From positions 32,001-96,000 of the forward strand of contig JAXMNT010000013.1 of NCBI GenBank assembly GCA_034670305.1: 64,000 bases of DNA, given 5' to 3'. The notes under the pieces were generated by a model that was not told the DNA's origin, did not search any database, and was given only the letters and a program-made list of their open reading frames with translations. Made by a program: the position numbers and the translations under genes. Of the stretch, positions 22,519 to 54,436 are shown piece after piece (within the stretch, counting starts at the first letter, position 1; each line of letters starts with the position of its first letter). Origin of the DNA: Deltaproteobacteria bacterium. Lineage in GTDB: Bacteria > Myxococcota_A > Polyangia > Polyangiales > Houyiibacteriaceae.

Positions 22519-22658
22519 GCTTCTGCTTCTGCTTCTGCTTCTGCTTCTGCTTCTGCTTCTGCTTCTGCTTCTGCTTCTGCTCCTGCTTCTGCTTCTGCTT
22601 CTGCTTCTGCTTCTGCTTCGGTATCCGCATCCGTTTCGCAGTCCGCTTCCAGTTCCAT
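22519..22658. repeat. Hexamer tandem repeat (GCTTCT) x~17 with degenerate tail
   Basis: Directly visible. Confidence 0.95.
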
Positions 22659-28100: not shown

Positions 28101-28248
28101 CGGCGGAAGCGGAATCGGAAGCGGAAGCAGGATTCGGATTCGGATTCGGATTCGGATTCGGATTCGGCTTCGGATTCGGCTTCGGCTTCGGCTCTGGCGT
28201 CGGTTTCGGATCCGCGGGCAAGGGCAGGGGCAAGGGCAAGGGCAAGGG
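28101..28248. repeat. Period-6 quasi-palindromic repeat tract (GGAAGC/GGAATC, GGATTC/GGCTTC, GGCAAG units)
   Basis: Directly visible. Confidence 0.9.
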
Positions 28249-31864: not shown

Positions 31865-32851
31865 GTGAAGATTCAAAAGGCACTGGTCACCGGAGCGAGT
31901 GGATTCATCGGCGGACGGCTGCGCGATGCCCTGCTCGCGGACGGTGTCGACGTGGTGGCGATCCGCCGCGGCGGCTCTCCTGCGAGCTCCAAGGGGCGCT
32001 CGGTCGAGGCCGCCTACGACGACGTGGACTCGCTCCGCGCGGTCGTGTCGCAGGAACGCCCCGACGTCGTCTTTCATGTGGCCGGCGTCACGAAGGGCGT
32101 GACCTTCGAGGACTTTCGGAACGGCAACGTCACACCCACCGCAAACCTGCTCGCCGCGCTGAAAGCCGAGCACCCGAAGCTCCGGCGATTCGTGCAGGTG
32201 AGTTCACAGACCTCCTACGGGCCGTCCACGCCTTCGCGTCCCACCATCGAAGACGACCCGCGCCGCCCGGTCGAGTTCTACGGACGGAGCAAACTCGAAG
32301 CAGAGATCCTCGTGGAACGCTCCGGGCTACCGTTCACCATCGTGCGCCCTTCGGGCGTCTACGGTCCGGGCGACGTCGACTTCCTGGAGCTCTTTCGAGC
32401 GGCGTCGATGCGCACCAACCTCTTCTTCGGCAACGAAGCGAAGTGGGGCAGTTTCATCTACGTCGACGACTGCGTGCGCGGCACGCTGATGGCCGCGACC
32501 CACGACGCCACGCTCAATCGAGGCTACTTTCTCACCGACGATGTGCCGACCACCTGGGGTGCGTTTCAGCAACTCATCGTCGACGCGATGCCCCACCGGG
32601 TCTTCACGGTGCGGCTTCCCGAAGCGTTCGTCTCGCTGGCCGCGATGGGCGGCGAGTTCCTCTCGAGCCGCGATGGCAAAGCGCGGCTGATGAACCGGCA
32701 GAAGGCGATCATGAGCGCGCAGGATGCGTGGACGTGCAGCGGCGCGCGGGCGCGGGCGGAGTTCGGGTTCGAAGCCGAGGTGACGCAACGCGAGGGGATC
32801 GCGCGCACCGACCGGTGGTACCGGGAGCAGAACTGGTACCGGTTGCGATAG
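31865..32851 (+). CDS. NAD-dependent epimerase/dehydratase (extended SDR)
   Basis: VTGASGFIG, YGRSK, VRPSGVYGP. Confidence 0.92.
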   Translation: MKIQKALVTGASGFIGGRLRDALLADGVDVVAIRRGGSPASSKGRSVEAAYDDVDSLRAVVSQERPDVVFHVAGVTKGVTFEDFRNGNVTPTANLLAALKAEHPKLRRFVQVSSQTSYGPSTPSRPTIEDDPRRPVEFYGRSKLEAEILVERSGLPFTIVRPSGVYGPGDVDFLELFRAASMRTNLFFGNEAKWGSFIYVDDCVRGTLMAATHDATLNRGYFLTDDVPTTWGAFQQLIVDAMPHRVFTVRLPEAFVSLAAMGGEFLSSRDGKARLMNRQKAIMSAQDAWTCSGARARAEFGFEAEVTQREGIARTDRWYREQNWYRLR

Positions 32852-32870: not shown

Positions 32871-32930
32871 CTGAAGCCGAAGCCGAATCCGAAGCCGAAG
32901 CCGCTTCCGCTTCCGCTTCTGCTGCTGCCG
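32871..32930. repeat. Period-6 quasi-palindrome (GAAGCC)n then (GCTTCC)n
   Basis: Directly visible between convergent genes. Confidence 0.85.
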
Positions 32931-49269: not shown

Positions 49270-51032
49270 ACTTCTTCCTCGATCTGCTCGAGACGATGTT
49301 CCCGGGCGAGCTGATGCTGCTTGGCGCGCTGCTCGTCCCCTTCCTCAAGGGCAAGCTGCGCCTCGGCTACGTGGTGCTGCTGCCGATCTTGAGCCTGCTG
49401 CATCTGCTCACCCTCGACGTCGGCTACGAAGCGGGCGCCACCCTGCTCGGCTACCCGCTCGAGGTGGTCCGGGTCGATGCGCTCAGCCGCATCTTCGGCA
49501 TCGTCTTCCACATCGCCGCCATCCTCTGCTGCATCTATGCGCTGCATGTGAAGGGCTGGGTGGAGCACGTCTCCACGCTTGTCTACGCGGGCGCCGCGAT
49601 CGCCGCGACCTTTGCCGGCGATCTGATCACGCTCTTCATCTTCTGGGAGCTCACCGCGCTCAGCTCCGTCTTCCTCATCTGGCAGCGCGGCGTCGTACAA
49701 CCGAGCCACCGCGAGCGCAGCTACCGCGCGGGCATGCGCTACCTGATCATCTCCGTCGCCTCGGGTGTGCTGCTGCTCGGCGGCGCGCTCCTCCACTACC
49801 AGGACACGGGCTCGCTGCACTTCGGGCTGATGGGCCTCGACGCCTCGCGCGGCGCCATCTTCATCTTCCTCGCGTTCGGCATGAAGGCGGCGTTCCCGCT
49901 GATGCACAACTGGGTGCAGGACGCCTACCCGGAAGCAACCGTCAGCGGCACCGTGGTGCTCGCGTCGTTCACGACGAAACTCGCCATCTACGCGCTGGCC
50001 CGCGGCTTCGCCGGCACCGAGCTGCTCATCCCGATCGGCGCGGCCATGACCGCGTTCCCGATCTTCTTCGCCGTCATCGAGAACGACATGCGGCGGGTGC
50101 TCGCGTACTCGCTGAACAACCAGCTCGGCTTCATGGTGGTCGGCATCGGCATCGGCACCGAGCTCGCCATCAACGGCGCCGCCGCCCACGCGTTCGCCCA
50201 CATCCTCTACAAGGGCCTCCTGCTGATGAGCATGGGCGCGGTGCTCTACCGCACCGGCACCATCAAGGCCTCCGAGCTCGGCGGACTGCACAAGTCGATG
50301 CCGATGACGACCGTGTTCTGCATCATCGGCGCCCTGGCCATCAGCGCGTTCCCCGGCCTCAGTGGCTTCGTGACCAAGTCGATGGTGATCAGCGCCGTCG
50401 GCGAGGCCCACCTGACCATCGTCTTCGGCGTGCTGCTCTTCGCGTCCGCCGGCGTCTGCGACCACTCCGGCATCAAGATCCCGTTCTTCACCTTCTTCGC
50501 GCACGACCAAGGCTGGCGGGTGAAAGAAGCGCCGAAGCACATGCTGATCGCCATGGGCCTCGCCGCCTTCCTCTGCATCGGCATCGGCGTCGCCCCGAGC
50601 TTCCTCTACGCGCTGCTCCCCTACCCCGAGCTCGCCGCCCAGTACCACGCCTACGAAGCCACCCACGTGCTCACGATGCTCGAGCTGCTCCTCTTCGCCG
50701 GCCTCGCGTTCGTCGCGCTGATGAAGATGGGCGTCTACCCACCCGAGCTGCCGGCCCTGAACCTCGACTTCGACTGGTTCTACCGCAAGGGCGCGCCACC
50801 GGTGGTGCGCGAAGTCTACGGCCTCGCCGGCTACGCCCGCGAACGCCTGTGGACCGCGACCCTCGGCGCCCGCGAGGCGGTGCGGGACATCGCCAAAACC
50901 CACCACGAACCGCCGGGCGGACGCATGGGCGAACCGTGGAGCGCGAGCGCGACGACCCTGTGGGCCGCGCTGATTCTGGGGATCATGCTGCTGCTCCAGT
51001 ACGGATGCAGTCCAGCGGCTGGACTGCAATAA
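49266..51032 (+). CDS. mrpD: Mrp D-family subunit (3)
   Basis: FWE, HNWVQDAYPEAT, ENDMRRVLAYS, HILYKGLL. Confidence 0.88.
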   Translation: MNFFLDLLETMFPGELMLLGALLVPFLKGKLRLGYVVLLPILSLLHLLTLDVGYEAGATLLGYPLEVVRVDALSRIFGIVFHIAAILCCIYALHVKGWVEHVSTLVYAGAAIAATFAGDLITLFIFWELTALSSVFLIWQRGVVQPSHRERSYRAGMRYLIISVASGVLLLGGALLHYQDTGSLHFGLMGLDASRGAIFIFLAFGMKAAFPLMHNWVQDAYPEATVSGTVVLASFTTKLAIYALARGFAGTELLIPIGAAMTAFPIFFAVIENDMRRVLAYSLNNQLGFMVVGIGIGTELAINGAAAHAFAHILYKGLLLMSMGAVLYRTGTIKASELGGLHKSMPMTTVFCIIGALAISAFPGLSGFVTKSMVISAVGEAHLTIVFGVLLFASAGVCDHSGIKIPFFTFFAHDQGWRVKEAPKHMLIAMGLAAFLCIGIGVAPSFLYALLPYPELAAQYHAYEATHVLTMLELLLFAGLAFVALMKMGVYPPELPALNLDFDWFYRKGAPPVVREVYGLAGYARERLWTATLGAREAVRDIAKTHHEPPGGRMGEPWSASATTLWAALILGIMLLLQYGCSPAAGLQ

Positions 51033-51084
51033 GCGGCCTGGCGGCCGCGACGGCCGCAGGGCGGCCGAGACGCAGTCGAGCTCA

Positions 51085-51150
51085 AGCGCACGCGGAAGCA
51101 GAAGCCGAAGCGAGGCCGAAGCCGAAGCCGAGGCCGAAGCCGAGGCCCGC
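51085..51150. repeat. Period-6 repeat (GCCGAA/GCCGAG) downstream of the four-helix-bundle gene
   Basis: Directly visible. Confidence 0.8.
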
Positions 51151-51176
51151 GACTGACGCGGGCCTCGCGGCCGACT

Positions 51177-51488
51177 CTACCGACTGAGCCGATACAGCAT
51201 CGCGCAGACCTCATCGCAGCGCTGCACCACCTCCTCGCCAACCTCGGCATACCCAAACAGCCGCACCAACCGAAGCGCCGCCTTCAACTCGCTGGCCTCA
51301 CCATACGCGATGGAGAATCGATCGACGCTCCGCTTGCCCCGCGCGTTCTGCGCTTCCGCGCAGTTCAGACAGACGGACTGCGCCGCCCGCCGCATCTGCT
51401 CACCCAGCGAACGGTCCTTGCGAGAAACAGCCGCCATCACCCCGCGCAACTCGCCAACGAGAACAAAAGAAGTTTCGAGAACAATCAT
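51177..51488 (-). CDS. Four-helix-bundle protein (23S rRNA-IVP/bAvd-like family), 103 aa
   Basis: GGAGG-5nt-ATG; LGEQMRRAAQSVCLNCAEA..F.IAYGEASEL..ML..L signature. Confidence 0.88.
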   Translation of the reverse strand: MIVLETSFVLVGELRGVMAAVSRKDRSLGEQMRRAAQSVCLNCAEAQNARGKRSVDRFSIAYGEASELKAALRLVRLFGYAEVGEEVVQRCDEVCAMLYRLSR

Positions 51489-51524
51489 CAGAGCCTCCAA
51501 CGCGCCACACACCAGAGCGACATT

Positions 51525-51660
51525 GCTCGGCGGCGCACCCCGTGCGCCCCCGGTGGAGAGCGCAGGGCGGGTCAAGGGCGAAGCCAGCCTTCCGAAGGCT
51601 GGGGCCGAAGGCACCCTTGACGCGACCGAGCACTCCGCCACGATGAAATTGCCGCCGAGC
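51525..51660. promoter_or_regulatory. Long fold-back with embedded -35/-10; candidate ssDNA (Frpo-type) promoter
   Basis: GCTCGGCGGC/GCCGCCGAGC base stem; GTCAAGGG/CCCTTGAC; TTGACG-16nt-CACGAT in the distal arm; GAA-loop mini-hairpins at the apex. Confidence 0.6.
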
Positions 51661-51761
51661 CAGAGCCCCACCCAGGCCACTCCAAGTCCGAAGGACGCAG
51701 GAGCCGACTTCCGAAGGAGAGGCTACAAACCGTGCGACTCCGAAGGAGAGCATGGGCTGGG

Positions 51762-51932
51762 AGCTGTTGCTGCCCCTGCCGCTGCCGCTGTCTCTGCCGC
51801 TGTCTCTGCCGCTGTCTCTGCCGCTGTCTCTGCAGCTGTCTCTGCCGCTGTCTCTGCGGCTGTCTCTGCCGGTGTCCCTGTCACTGCCGCTGCCGCTGCG
51901 ACTGCCACTGCGACTGCCACTGTCGCTGCCAC
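51762..51932. repeat. 12/6-periodic repeat (GCTGTCTCTGCC)n
   Basis: Directly visible. Confidence 0.92.
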
Positions 51933-52189
51933 TCTCAGGAGGGCTCGCCCCGCCCGCCTACATCCCATGCGGAAACGACGGGTCGCCCACCACCAGCGAT
52001 ATGTACGCCGCCAAGTCGTCGCAGGAACCGAGTCGTGGTCGCCCGGACTCGATGTGGCGGGCCACGCGACGCAACCACGCTTCGCTGTTCTCCGGGATTC
52101 CGAACAGGGTCTGCTTCACGGTTGGCCCTGCCCGTGTAGATTCTCGACCACGCGGAAGTCTATCCCGGGAAGCCAGCCGCAGAAGAACC

Positions 52190-52340
52190 CGCGGCAGAAA
52201 CGGCGACAACTTCAGCGGCAGAAACAGAAACAGAAACAGCCGCAGTGGCAGCGACAGTGTCAGAAGCAGTGGCAGAAGCAGTGGCAGAAGCAGTGGCAGC
52301 CACAGCCGCAGAAACAGCTGCTGCACCCAGCGACAGCTAC
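52190..52340. repeat. Period-6/12 repeat (GGCAGAAGCAGT/GAAACA), inverted relative to the 51762 tract
   Basis: Directly visible. Confidence 0.88.
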
Positions 52341-52954: not shown

Positions 52955-53232
52955 AGTCAGCGGCAGAAGCGACGGCCACAGAATCAGCGACAGCGGACAG
53001 AACCCGCAGCAGAGTCAGGATCAGCGGCAGCGACAGCAGCAGAATCAGCGGCAGCGACAGCCACAGAATCAGCGGCACGACAGCCACAGAATCAGCGGCA
53101 GCGGCAGTCACAGAATCAGCGGCAGTCACAGAATCAGCGGCAGTCACAGAATCAGCGGCAGCGACAGAGTCAGCGGCAGCGGCAGTCACAGAATCAGCTG
53201 CAGAGGCCAGCTGCAGAGGCCAGCGGCAGGCG
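52955..53232. repeat. Degenerate 18/6-periodic repeat with about ten AGA(A/G)TCAG cores
   Basis: GTCACAGAATCAGCGGCA units visible. Confidence 0.9.
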
Positions 53233-53233
53233 G

Positions 53234-54436
53234 CTAGATCAAGATCACGTTGCAGGGGAACTCCGCTTCGAGCGTCACGCCCGGCGTGTTCTGCAGCCGT
53301 TCGCAGGATTCTCCGCGGAGCTCGATGTGGCTCTCGTCGACGGGGACCCAGCCGTTCTCCTCGTCGCACGGCGGGACCTCGTCACCGTTGAGGCGGACTT
53401 CGCCTTCGCAGGCTTCGTCGGGGTTCACGCGGCCCATCAACTCGACGACGCAGGAGAGTTCCCCGCCGATGATGTCGCCGAGCGCCGCGCGCAATCCGTC
53501 GTCGTCGCCGGCGACCCAGAACTCGGCGTCGGGATCCCCGCCGCGTCGCCCGAGGCCGGCGTTGGCGACGTCTTGCAGATGCTCCGAGCTGATCGTGCCT
53601 TCGCCCACGCTGATGATGAACGTGCGGATGCCGGCCAGGTACGCGCGGCCCACCGCGGCGATGGCTTCTTCTTGACCCTCCTGCGGGTTCGCTTGTTCGC
53701 AGGTGTCCGGCTCTCCGTCGGTCGCCAGGATGAAGATGGTCGGGTCTTCGCTCGGATCCGGAATCGATCCGATCCAGTCCAGAATGAAGTCGACCGAGTC
53801 GCCGGTGGGTGTCTCGTCGATCGGATCCTCGTCCGAGTAGACCGCATCGATCGCGTCGAAGTTGGAGAGCGCCGGGTCGACCAGGGTCACGAGCGGGCAC
53901 ATGCCCATGGCCGGTCCGCGCGGCTCAGAGGAGCGCGCACTGTAGAGCGCGAGGCCGAACCGAACGGTGTCTTCGAGTTCGCGGACCAAACCCGTGTCGT
54001 CCATCAACGAGTTGCGCAGGCCGCGCCAGCGGTCGGCCGCGCCCGGGAAGTCGGCGGTCATGCTGCCGCTCTGGTCGACGATGAGGATGACGTTCGGGGT
54101 CACCCGGCGGGCTTCGATGCGGACGGACGCACACATGTCGGGCGCGTCGCCGTTCGGGGCATCCACCCGGGGCCGGGCATCGCCTTCGATCGCGACGCAC
54201 TCACCCTCGGCGGTGCACGCTTCGGAATCCGAGCAGCCCGCGTGGGTCACCGGATCGCAGTCCGCCGCGCATCGATCGCTCGAGTTGCAATAGAGCCCGC
54301 CCGGGCACGGACGGTCCGCGCACGCACGCCCACACGCCACGTTGGGCTCCTCGCCTGCGCAGGCGCCCGCGCTCGGGCCGCCGCTGCAGTCACAGGCTGC
54401 AACCAAGATCGCACCGAGCAGTAGAATGGGTCGCAT
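53234..54436 (-). CDS. VWA-domain Cys-rich lipoprotein (CglB-like)
   Basis: Lipobox VAAC; MIDAS DQSGS, TPT, LATDGEP. Confidence 0.85.
   Translation of the reverse strand: MRPILLLGAILVAACDCSGGPSAGACAGEEPNVACGRACADRPCPGGLYCNSSDRCAADCDPVTHAGCSDSEACTAEGECVAIEGDARPRVDAPNGDAPDMCASVRIEARRVTPNVILIVDQSGSMTADFPGAADRWRGLRNSLMDDTGLVRELEDTVRFGLALYSARSSEPRGPAMGMCPLVTLVDPALSNFDAIDAVYSDEDPIDETPTGDSVDFILDWIGSIPDPSEDPTIFILATDGEPDTCEQANPQEGQEEAIAAVGRAYLAGIRTFIISVGEGTISSEHLQDVANAGLGRRGGDPDAEFWVAGDDDGLRAALGDIIGGELSCVVELMGRVNPDEACEGEVRLNGDEVPPCDEENGWVPVDESHIELRGESCERLQNTPGVTLEAEFPCNVILI

Follow-up and report, generated by a model that had tools for sequence, protein, structure and literature searches.

A multicopy chromosomal cassette with a candidate structure-dependent promoter upstream of a four-helix-bundle gene in the order Polyangiales

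According to the accessible portions of three reports, a large stem-loop formed by one DNA strand may reconstitute the -35 and -10 boxes of a promoter that is inactive as duplex (PMC11541004; PMC12672017; bioRxiv 10.64898/2026.01.09.698686). In the same portions of these three sources, such single-stranded DNA (ssDNA) promoters are described for the leading regions of conjugative plasmids only, where they time the expression of anti-defence genes, and the literature found on Frpo and on ssDNA promoters consisted of plasmid papers only. The present analysis deals with a chromosomal locus in a stretch of 64,000 nucleotides (hereafter the window; positions 32,001 to 96,000 of contig JAXMNT010000013.1, assembly GCA_034670305.1) from a Deltaproteobacteria bacterium of the order Polyangiales, in which a 103-aa four-helix-bundle gene on the minus strand is preceded by a long imperfect palindrome. 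The gene and its palindrome form a multicopy cassette, and the arrangement of the palindrome suggests that the gene is most likely driven by a Frpo-like structure-dependent promoter, a reading that is held here with about even confidence.

Folded nucleic acids are also offered to RNA polymerases in other systems. In ssoA-type origins of rolling-circle plasmids and in the minus-strand origin of filamentous phages, the host RNA polymerase reads promoter-like boxes in a folded strand and makes short primers for the complementary strand on an obligatory ssDNA intermediate. The promoters of the phage N4 virion RNA polymerase are short hairpins with 3-nt loops, extruded from supercoiled DNA and read by the phage enzyme, while 6S RNA mimics an open promoter by a closing stem, a central bubble and an internal stem, with no sequence-specific -35 or -10. 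Concerning the protein, the solved members of PF05635/TIGR02436 are pentameric four-helix bundles, and Avd, the accessory protein of diversity-generating retroelements, belongs to the same PF05635 four-helix-bundle family. PF05635 is also named in PMC10053308, as far as the accessible portion of that source goes.

When positions 51490-51760 of the window were folded as + strand DNA, a structure of -63 kcal/mol was obtained, and none of 200 shuffled sequences was equally stable (z -3.35). The other forms of the same segment gave z values of -3.81 (+ strand RNA), -1.24 (- strand DNA) and -1.61 (- strand RNA), the last being the sense RNA of the window copy, for which 14/200 shuffles were equally stable. 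An earlier note on this DNA, made from the sequence alone, had described a hairpin with a base stem, a pairing between GTCAAGGG and CCCTTGAC, and apical mini-hairpins; the folding of the + strand as DNA returned this structure at the coordinates that the note had given (Table 1). The series TTGACG-16 nt-CACGAT-GAAATT, which the note had placed in the distal arm, is likewise present, and positions 51640-50 are left unpaired in the + strand DNA fold. In the alignment of related copies, RNAalifold predicted 28 consensus pairs, and at 19 of these the two partners have changed together in a compensatory way; the base stem P0 also covaries, as in the GTGCCCGGCGG/CCGCCGGGCAC pair of subfamily B (see below). 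Since 19 of the 28 pairs covary and the hairpin recurs across the order, it represents more than a chance fold.

The earlier note had also taken the locus for a single small cassette, a view that did not survive the search of the genome. A search with the 271 nt that precede the gene gave 35 matches in this genome. Of the core of the unit (51150-51760) there are 14 close copies, with identities of 84-91%, and about 10 more at 65-70%, the limits of conservation lying at about 51146 and about 51755. The 103-aa frame is intact in 12/14 of the close copies. The genome has 47 matches to PF05635, of which 39 lie above the cut-off, and reading the upstream regions of these genes together with covariance-model matches revealed a complete imperfect palindrome of about 140 nt upstream of 32/39. 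These palindromes fall into three subfamilies: A, the window type, with 13 genes over the cut-off and one interrupted copy; B, with 8 genes; and C, with 11 complete copies and one that has lost its 5' arm. The six remaining PF05635 genes over the cut-off either stand at contig ends or belong to a fourth type with a different upstream region. Three members of this fourth group (C14:16486, C15:131727 and C1:298705, numbered by contig) share an upstream region that lacks the TTGAC stem and shows a terminator-like hairpin right after the stop codon of the host gene, a CCCTTG-type array and other hairpins.

Beyond this genome, blastn located the hairpin core in four further members of the family and order, and a four-helix-bundle open reading frame (ORF), about 39% identical, started 60-130 nt past the hairpin in 9/11 of the blastn loci, including loci from other families. 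A covariance model built from 29 sequences matched 27/151 sampled genomes of the order, belonging to nine families, with at most 14 copies per genome. There were 27 matches in further genomes, about 20 of which had a four-helix-bundle ORF starting 0-50 nt after the model, whereas one stood at a contig end and the five or six weakest lacked such an ORF. In a phylum-wide sample, 4/151 genomes were matched, and the single match outside the order was a weak one, to a solo hairpin that no gene accompanies. Such gene-less hairpins also occur in the genome of the window, at C22:10035-10177 and C18:54447-54617; in the former, the 3' part of the hairpin is fused directly to the terminal hairpin of the cassette, so that the ORF has been deleted, and in the latter the hairpin continues into a GCTTCT array. 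In the accessible part of the literature listed under PF05635, TIGR02436 and rRNA intervening sequence protein, no multicopy cassette of this kind was found.

The geometry of the palindrome was compared among 49 distinct hairpins with a full 5' side. In stem P3, the + strand (by which the template strand of the gene is meant for every copy) carries a -35-like box that reads TTGAN in 42/49 (TTGAC in 30 and TTGAG in 10) and another single-base variant in the remaining seven. This box is followed by a spacer of 16 nt in 42/49, 17 nt in five, 15 nt in one and 18 nt in one, and then by a -10-like hexamer whose second base is A (-11) and whose sixth base is T (-7) in 49/49. The inner bases of the hexamer are mostly G or C, as in CACGAT, CACGCT and CACCCT, and its first base (-12) is C in 32, G in 9, T in 7 and A in 1. 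The -12 base is the last paired base of the arm and -11A the first unpaired one, which places the junction between duplex and single strand exactly between them; the mean pairing probabilities were 0.93 for TTGAC and 0.79 for -12, and from -11 to -7 the mean probability of being unpaired was 0.65. In the window copy, pairing sets in again with P0 seven bases past the T, and there a transcript would have its +1. In subfamily C, which was collected via the protein and not via the model, the corresponding series is TTGAGG or TTTACG, 18 nt, and TACGCT or TACGGT.

This arrangement is confined to one strand: NANNNT at 15-18 nt after TTGA was found on the + strand in 49/49 and on the gene-sense strand in 0/49. 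Two points of the earlier note thus held across homologues, namely that the gene's own strand has no -10 and that the hairpin and its -35/-10 geometry are conserved upstream of related genes, on the template strand in all 49, in three subfamilies and in many families. It is known that sigma reads -11A and -7T as flipped-out single-stranded bases, and that a T at -12 is needed in duplex promoters. In the hairpins, the only conserved bases of the -10 are the two that sigma reads as ssDNA, and the -12 T occurs in just 7/49. A GC-rich -10 with a rare -12 T fits a box that is offered pre-melted, and is poor for a duplex promoter.

From this geometry, the following mechanism may be proposed. The cassette comprises the palindrome of about 140 nt, a 46-nt leader with the ribosome-binding site, the 103-aa gene and a GC-rich hairpin after the stop codon. 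By pairing with itself, the template strand, which is the + strand of the window, would adopt a three-way structure that copies an already-opened promoter of the housekeeping sigma: TTGAC would lie in duplex, an arm of about 20 bp would set the 16-nt spacer, the duplex would end at -12, the segment from -11A to -7T would have no partner, and the duplex would resume around +1. RNA polymerase binding to the folded + strand would use this same strand as template and move towards the gene, and we infer a start of the transcript about 46 nt before the ATG, near 51534. In duplex DNA the boxes face in the opposite direction to the gene, and a -10 so rich in GC should melt poorly; the duplex form is expected to be silent, and the promoter would be active when the + strand is single-stranded or the palindrome is extruded. 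Replication gaps, repair, uptake and supercoil-driven extrusion are the occasions of unwinding that may be envisaged for the hairpin family. More tentatively, at somewhat less than even confidence, the copies may together constitute an order-wide chromosomal family of structure-gated promoters, acting as distributed ssDNA sensors that would each switch on an Avd-like four-helix-bundle gene.

The same boxes could instead be an ordinary duplex promoter that faces away from the gene. TTGACG-16-CACGAT would then fire rightwards from about 51651, and its non-coding or antisense product would pass the small GAA-loop hairpins, enter the upstream hexamer array and head for the end of the host gene, and the palindrome would be a separate feature, for instance of the sense RNA. 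The boxes do form a formally complete promoter on the + strand in 49/49, and the subfamily-specific array lies exactly on the side that would be transcribed; nevertheless, the -10 is GC-rich, lacks the -12 T in 42/49, was missed by the consensus scan and should melt poorly as duplex, and nothing is conserved downstream across families. Moreover, a duplex promoter would leave unexplained why the spacer and the -35 are kept complementary to a second arm while the -10 alone has no partner, and why the pairing stops at -12 and resumes near +1. We consider this alternative improbable.

Table 1. Features of the window copy of the cassette and of its flanks (positions in the window; DNA folding, TRF for the tandem arrays)
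Feature	Positions	Strand	Remarks
Period-6 array, GAAGCC/GAGGCC on +, TTCGGC-type in gene sense	51095..51147		TRF; directly after the 3' hairpin
GC-rich terminator-like hairpin, 10-bp stem, 5-nt loop, without U-tract	51142..51166	-	10 nt past the stop codon
Four-helix-bundle gene, 103 aa + stop	51177..51488	-	ORF 51180-51488, stop 51177-79; PF05635 / TIGR02436
Shine-Dalgarno GGAGG	51495..51499	-	6 nt before the ATG; invariant in 14/14 aligned copies
P0, proximal strand GCTCGGCGGC	51525..51534	+	partner 51651-51660; DNA fold
P4 mini-hairpin GGCGCAC-CCC-GTGCGCC	51532..51548	+	template side of the junction; 3-nt overlap with P0
Main stem P1-P3, proximal (template) arm	51553..51578	+	ends in GTCAAGGG 51571-78
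Apical region, three mini-hairpins closed C-GAA-G	51579..51613	+	GCGAAGC 51578-84; CCAGCCTT..AAGGCTGG; GCCGAAGGC 51604-12
Distal (non-template) arm	51614..51638	+	CCCTTGAC 51614-21 + -35-like TTGACG 51617-22 + 16-nt spacer 51623-38
-10-like CACGAT, then unpaired GAAATT	51639..51650	+	CACGAT 51639-44, GAAATT 51645-50; -12 C paired; -11 A, -7 T invariant
P0, distal strand GCCGCCGAGC	51651..51660	+	duplex resumes at would-be +1
Three more mini-palindromes, 3-nt centres	51686..51748		GTCC-GAA-GGAC 51686-96, CTTCC-GAA-GGAG 51708-19, CTCC-GAA-GGAG 51738-48; optional 5' module, subfamily A
Period-12/6 array, CTGCCGCTGTCT on +, CAGNNN in gene sense	51770..51930		TRF; upstream of the cassette

Whether the palindrome acts as DNA or as RNA was addressed through its wobble pairs. 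In stems P1-P3 (19 pairs, 1000 cells, 53 distinct usable sequences), G.U pairs numbered 3 in the gene sense and A.C pairs, which are G.T on the opposite strand, numbered 10, compared with 144/1725 G.U pairs (8.3%) in the tRNA stems of the same genome (3/1000 against 144/1725, Fisher p 1.6e-24); in a first alignment, the wobble counts had been 13 vs 8 and did not settle the folding strand. Wobble pairs are nearly absent though the partners have changed often, and for this reason the pairing behaves as that of DNA and not as that of an RNA helix. The arms are of nearly constant length, with 20 nt on one side in 42/49 and 21 nt on the proximal (template) side in 45/49, whereas relatives differ in the length of the apex, which spans 18 to 84 nt. 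The apical mini-hairpins are symmetric about 3-nt loops that read TTC, TGC, TAC or TCC in the gene sense and correspond to C-GNA-G on the + strand. In DNA, a GNA loop with a C-G closing pair is unusually stable; the same letters read UNCG-like in the sense RNA, so that the loops alone do not decide the strand. In place of the P4 mini-hairpin of the window copy, other copies have shorter hairpins with 3-nt loops. The outermost 5' mini-palindrome module is found in 7/14 of the aligned subfamily-A copies, and CCGAAGG occurs five times within 51592-51746, always on the + strand, and 27 times across the whole window against 13.3 expected.

These observations bear on a second explanation, in which the palindrome would be an RNA-level element of a selfish cassette resembling an rRNA intervening sequence (IVS). 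Such a cassette would be promoterless and depend on transcripts that continue into it from the preceding host gene; the palindrome would form a long RNA stem that is cut, in the manner of RNase III, or that stabilises the 5' end, releasing a translatable mRNA that the hairpin after the stop codon would end, and the promoter-like boxes would be coincidental or serve something else. The PF05635 family was first known from rRNA intervening sequences, and no conserved duplex promoter for the gene was found inside the cassette. In addition, the nearest upstream host gene, called by a crude filter on ORFs and on GC content at third codon positions (GC3), is co-directional and 75-900 nt away in 12/14 callable copies of this genome (21 examined) and in 19/20 callable relatives (26 examined). 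The pooled count of 31/34 differs from a co-directional background of 70% (p 0.003) or 75% (p 0.017), and read-through from such a placement could express the gene without any promoter of its own. RNA parameters, moreover, favour the sense strand in 36/52 hairpins; DNA parameters favour the + strand in 32/52, so that the energies as a whole do not tell the strands apart. On the other hand, 3/1000 is an unusually low wobble frequency for an RNA helix with so much covariation, and the window-copy sense RNA was no better than shuffles. The arms do not enclose the gene and the flanking arrays are direct and not inverted repeats. Nor does an RNA element explain why TTGA(C) is invariant although the pairs next to it in the stem covary freely, or why A-NNN-T is invariant at the junction, at a fixed 16-nt distance and on one strand only. 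We regard an RNA-level element as unlikely, albeit with an appreciable share of the probability, which makes it the main rival of the structure-dependent promoter.

The proposal of a structure-dependent promoter must be weighed against several findings, which add to the co-directional placement and the undecided strand energies just described. First, a scan for the strict sigma-70 consensus returned 0 sites, and the -10 fits it at 3/6 positions; sigma-54 or extracytoplasmic function (ECF)-type boxes were looked for upstream by eye, and none was convincing. Second, 30/49 of the DNA minimum-energy folds re-pair right after -7, which would leave a bubble of perhaps 5 nt, and polymerase would need to open the P4 mini-hairpin that occupies the template side of the junction. 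Third, in two copies with intact ORFs the spacer and the -10 box are set apart by an insert of 69 nt; this insert, which forms a hairpin itself, is present in just these two full copies, both of subfamily A (C28:6974-7042 and C68:36200-36268). Fourth, since the boxes are part of the model by which hairpins were collected, some of their conservation stems from the way of collection. Finally, no source of ssDNA was evident, and neither the plasmid nor the phage collection gave a match. The gene-sense strand is G-rich in 15/21 copies by GC skew over 20-kb windows, a noisy measure, by which the template strand would probably be the one copied by leading-strand synthesis, and thus not exposed as ssDNA on a routine basis.

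The claim that the cassette senses its own transfer, as the earlier note had put it, is not supported, given more than 30 dispersed chromosomal copies and the lack of blastn matches in a plasmid collection of 72,556 records and of matches in a phage collection of 50,697 records. What stands of that interpretation is the geometry of a hairpin promoter on the template strand. At the locus of the window, which follows mrpD, the comparison with orthologous mrpD loci in other genera found the cassette in 0/10 of them, which makes it lineage-specific at this site; no clean empty site could be aligned, synteny past mrpD not being kept within 1.5 kb.

A third alternative is that the hairpin serves the propagation of the element itself, and not gene expression, as a single-strand recombination or priming site, for instance the target of a hairpin-recognising transposase or recombinase or an ssi/sso-like primer site, with polymerase-like boxes that it uses by coincidence. 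Y1-type transposases act on ssDNA hairpins, and 11 of them (PF01797) are encoded in this genome, although they are more simply linked to a separate repeat of 65 nt with at least 90 matches. A propagation site would suit the DNA-like pairing of a multicopy unit that is lineage-specific at the mrpD locus, and Frpo also primes DNA synthesis, as stated in the accessible portions of PMC12672017 and bioRxiv 10.64898/2026.01.09.698686. However, neither sharp element ends nor target duplications could be defined, since the flanks merge into microsatellites; the dS of 0.46 among copies makes the spread old; and the distance and orientation of the hairpin relative to the gene start are fixed in all subfamilies, which points to expression. 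This alternative has little likelihood in our judgement. The separate repeat is a dispersed palindromic mini-element of about 65 nt with the core GGGGGCTGTGCCCCC, for which 94 blastn-short matches at about 90-97% identity were obtained (for example, C11:27644-27719). One of its copies breaks a four-helix-bundle ORF, and a related piece lies in the apical loop of another cassette; together with the 11 Y1-type transposase genes, it may form a REP/RAYT-like system. An integron attC reading of the unit was also judged by eye and set aside, as neither cassette arrays nor core-site-like ends were seen; the integrase was not searched for.

With regard to the gene, the earlier note's assignment of a 103-aa four-helix-bundle protein to the minus strand was confirmed by two profiles, PF05635 (54.6 bits, E 1.5e-14, above its cut-off of 33.8) and TIGR02436 (60.4 bits, above its cut-off of 24), and the nearest solved relative by sequence is 2gsc_A (E 5.6e-4). 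By these matches, the product is an Avd/IVS-type four-helix-bundle protein. Among the 12 intact subfamily-A paralogues, dN/dS was 0.135 and dS 0.46, values which indicate that the proteins have been maintained and that the copies are not recent; as judged from these substitution rates, the four-helix-bundle protein is under purifying selection and functional. The cassette genes have a GC3 of 0.68-0.75 versus 0.85-0.93 in neighbouring host genes. The terminator-like hairpin after the stop codon is kept, with changes in its stem, among subfamily-A copies, and subfamilies B and C have a hairpin of their own at the same place. A scan of the whole window with Rfam 15 found no family at gathering score, and in 50900-52100 returned chance-level matches only, far below gathering scores; none of the three RVT_1 genes of the genome lies on the contig of the window (C13). 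The statement that there is no rRNA and no reverse transcriptase nearby therefore holds. In another part of the genome, at C67:13340-13591 and C67:18832-19467, a subfamily-C cassette stands 5 kb from one of the three reverse-transcriptase genes, a locus that may be a diversity-generating retroelement.

The period-6 repeats that the earlier note had seen as flanks of the cassette are present on both sides, but they are microsatellites of a kind spread over the genome: period-6 arrays are common in the window according to Tandem Repeats Finder (TRF) and have thousands of blastn matches genome-wide, and therefore do not form a cassette-specific border. An array of the downstream type follows 12/14 subfamily-A copies, with variable length. 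The type of the upstream array goes with the subfamily, being CAGNNN in 14/14 aligned copies of A, CCGCTN in 7/8 of the copies shown for B and GCCGAN in 10/11 for C, and in subfamilies B and C the motif often recurs downstream in the same orientation. This link could mean that arrays move together with their cassettes, or else that the cassettes have a preference for certain arrays. Inverted tandem-repeat arms around the cassettes were looked for and were not found. The intergenic DNA of the window is densely filled with hexanucleotide arrays, others of which lie at 52242-52317, 53016-53234, 22519-22619, 28103-28248 and 32873-32903. Between the upstream array and the first of these lies a unique segment of 300 nt (51932-52240), which is not repeated elsewhere in the genome and has a possible small minus-strand ORF ending at 51958, with the C-terminal sequence ...AAYISLVVGDPSFPHGM.

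If a structure-dependent promoter does operate here, the hairpins would for the first time extend ssDNA promoters beyond conjugative plasmids and ssDNA replicons, and structure-dependent transcription would be a general bacterial device instead of a plasmid speciality. The large orphan part of the PF05635 family, known as 23S IVS protein or Avd, would gain its first functional handle in the form of ssDNA-linked expression, and a compact natural part of about 140 nt reporting ssDNA would become available in GC-rich bacteria. If the RNA-level explanation were true instead, a type of multicopy cassette not described so far would still have been documented.

Regarding its place among known systems, the gene belongs to PF05635, but the unit as such is not an intervening sequence of rRNA, and it is not part of a retroelement either. 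It shares with ORF-bearing intervening sequences of 23S rRNA the protein family (S23p/PF05635) and the character of a small, selfish-looking unit with hairpins, in or behind transcribed host genes, which is multicopy here. In contrast to those sequences, the cassette does not lie in rRNA, no Rfam family having reached gathering score in the 64-kb window; its palindrome has both arms upstream of the ORF and does not enclose it; its flanking arrays show no complementarity, those of subfamilies B and C being direct repeats; and its pairing is nearly without wobble. Unlike Avd of diversity-generating retroelements, the window copy has no reverse transcriptase on its contig, and unlike ssoA-type origins, its hairpin is followed at a fixed distance by a protein gene. 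Like 6S RNA, the fold would offer a closing stem, a bubble and an internal stem to polymerase, but 6S is an RNA and no Rfam match was obtained here; like the N4 promoters, it has hairpins with 3-nt loops, but these promoters are short and read by a phage enzyme.

In its proposed mode of action, the element resembles Frpo and the related ssi and ssp elements. Unlike Frpo, the present element is chromosomal, has more than 30 copies in one genome and does not extend beyond a single order of a GC-rich phylum; its partner is the PF05635 gene family, in place of anti-defence, SSB or PsiB genes; its dispersed copies stand in no plasmid leading-region, oriT or transfer context and match no plasmid; and its -10 keeps only -11A and -7T. 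The lack of a blastn match among plasmids argues against close similarity of sequence, and the two are likened by structure and geometry. In this respect, and as far as the accessible descriptions of the elements of F, ColIb-P9 and pESBL go, they agree in that the large stem-loop of one strand reconstitutes the -35 and -10 boxes, and in that the gene which follows directly is read from the folded strand, silence being expected of the duplex form.

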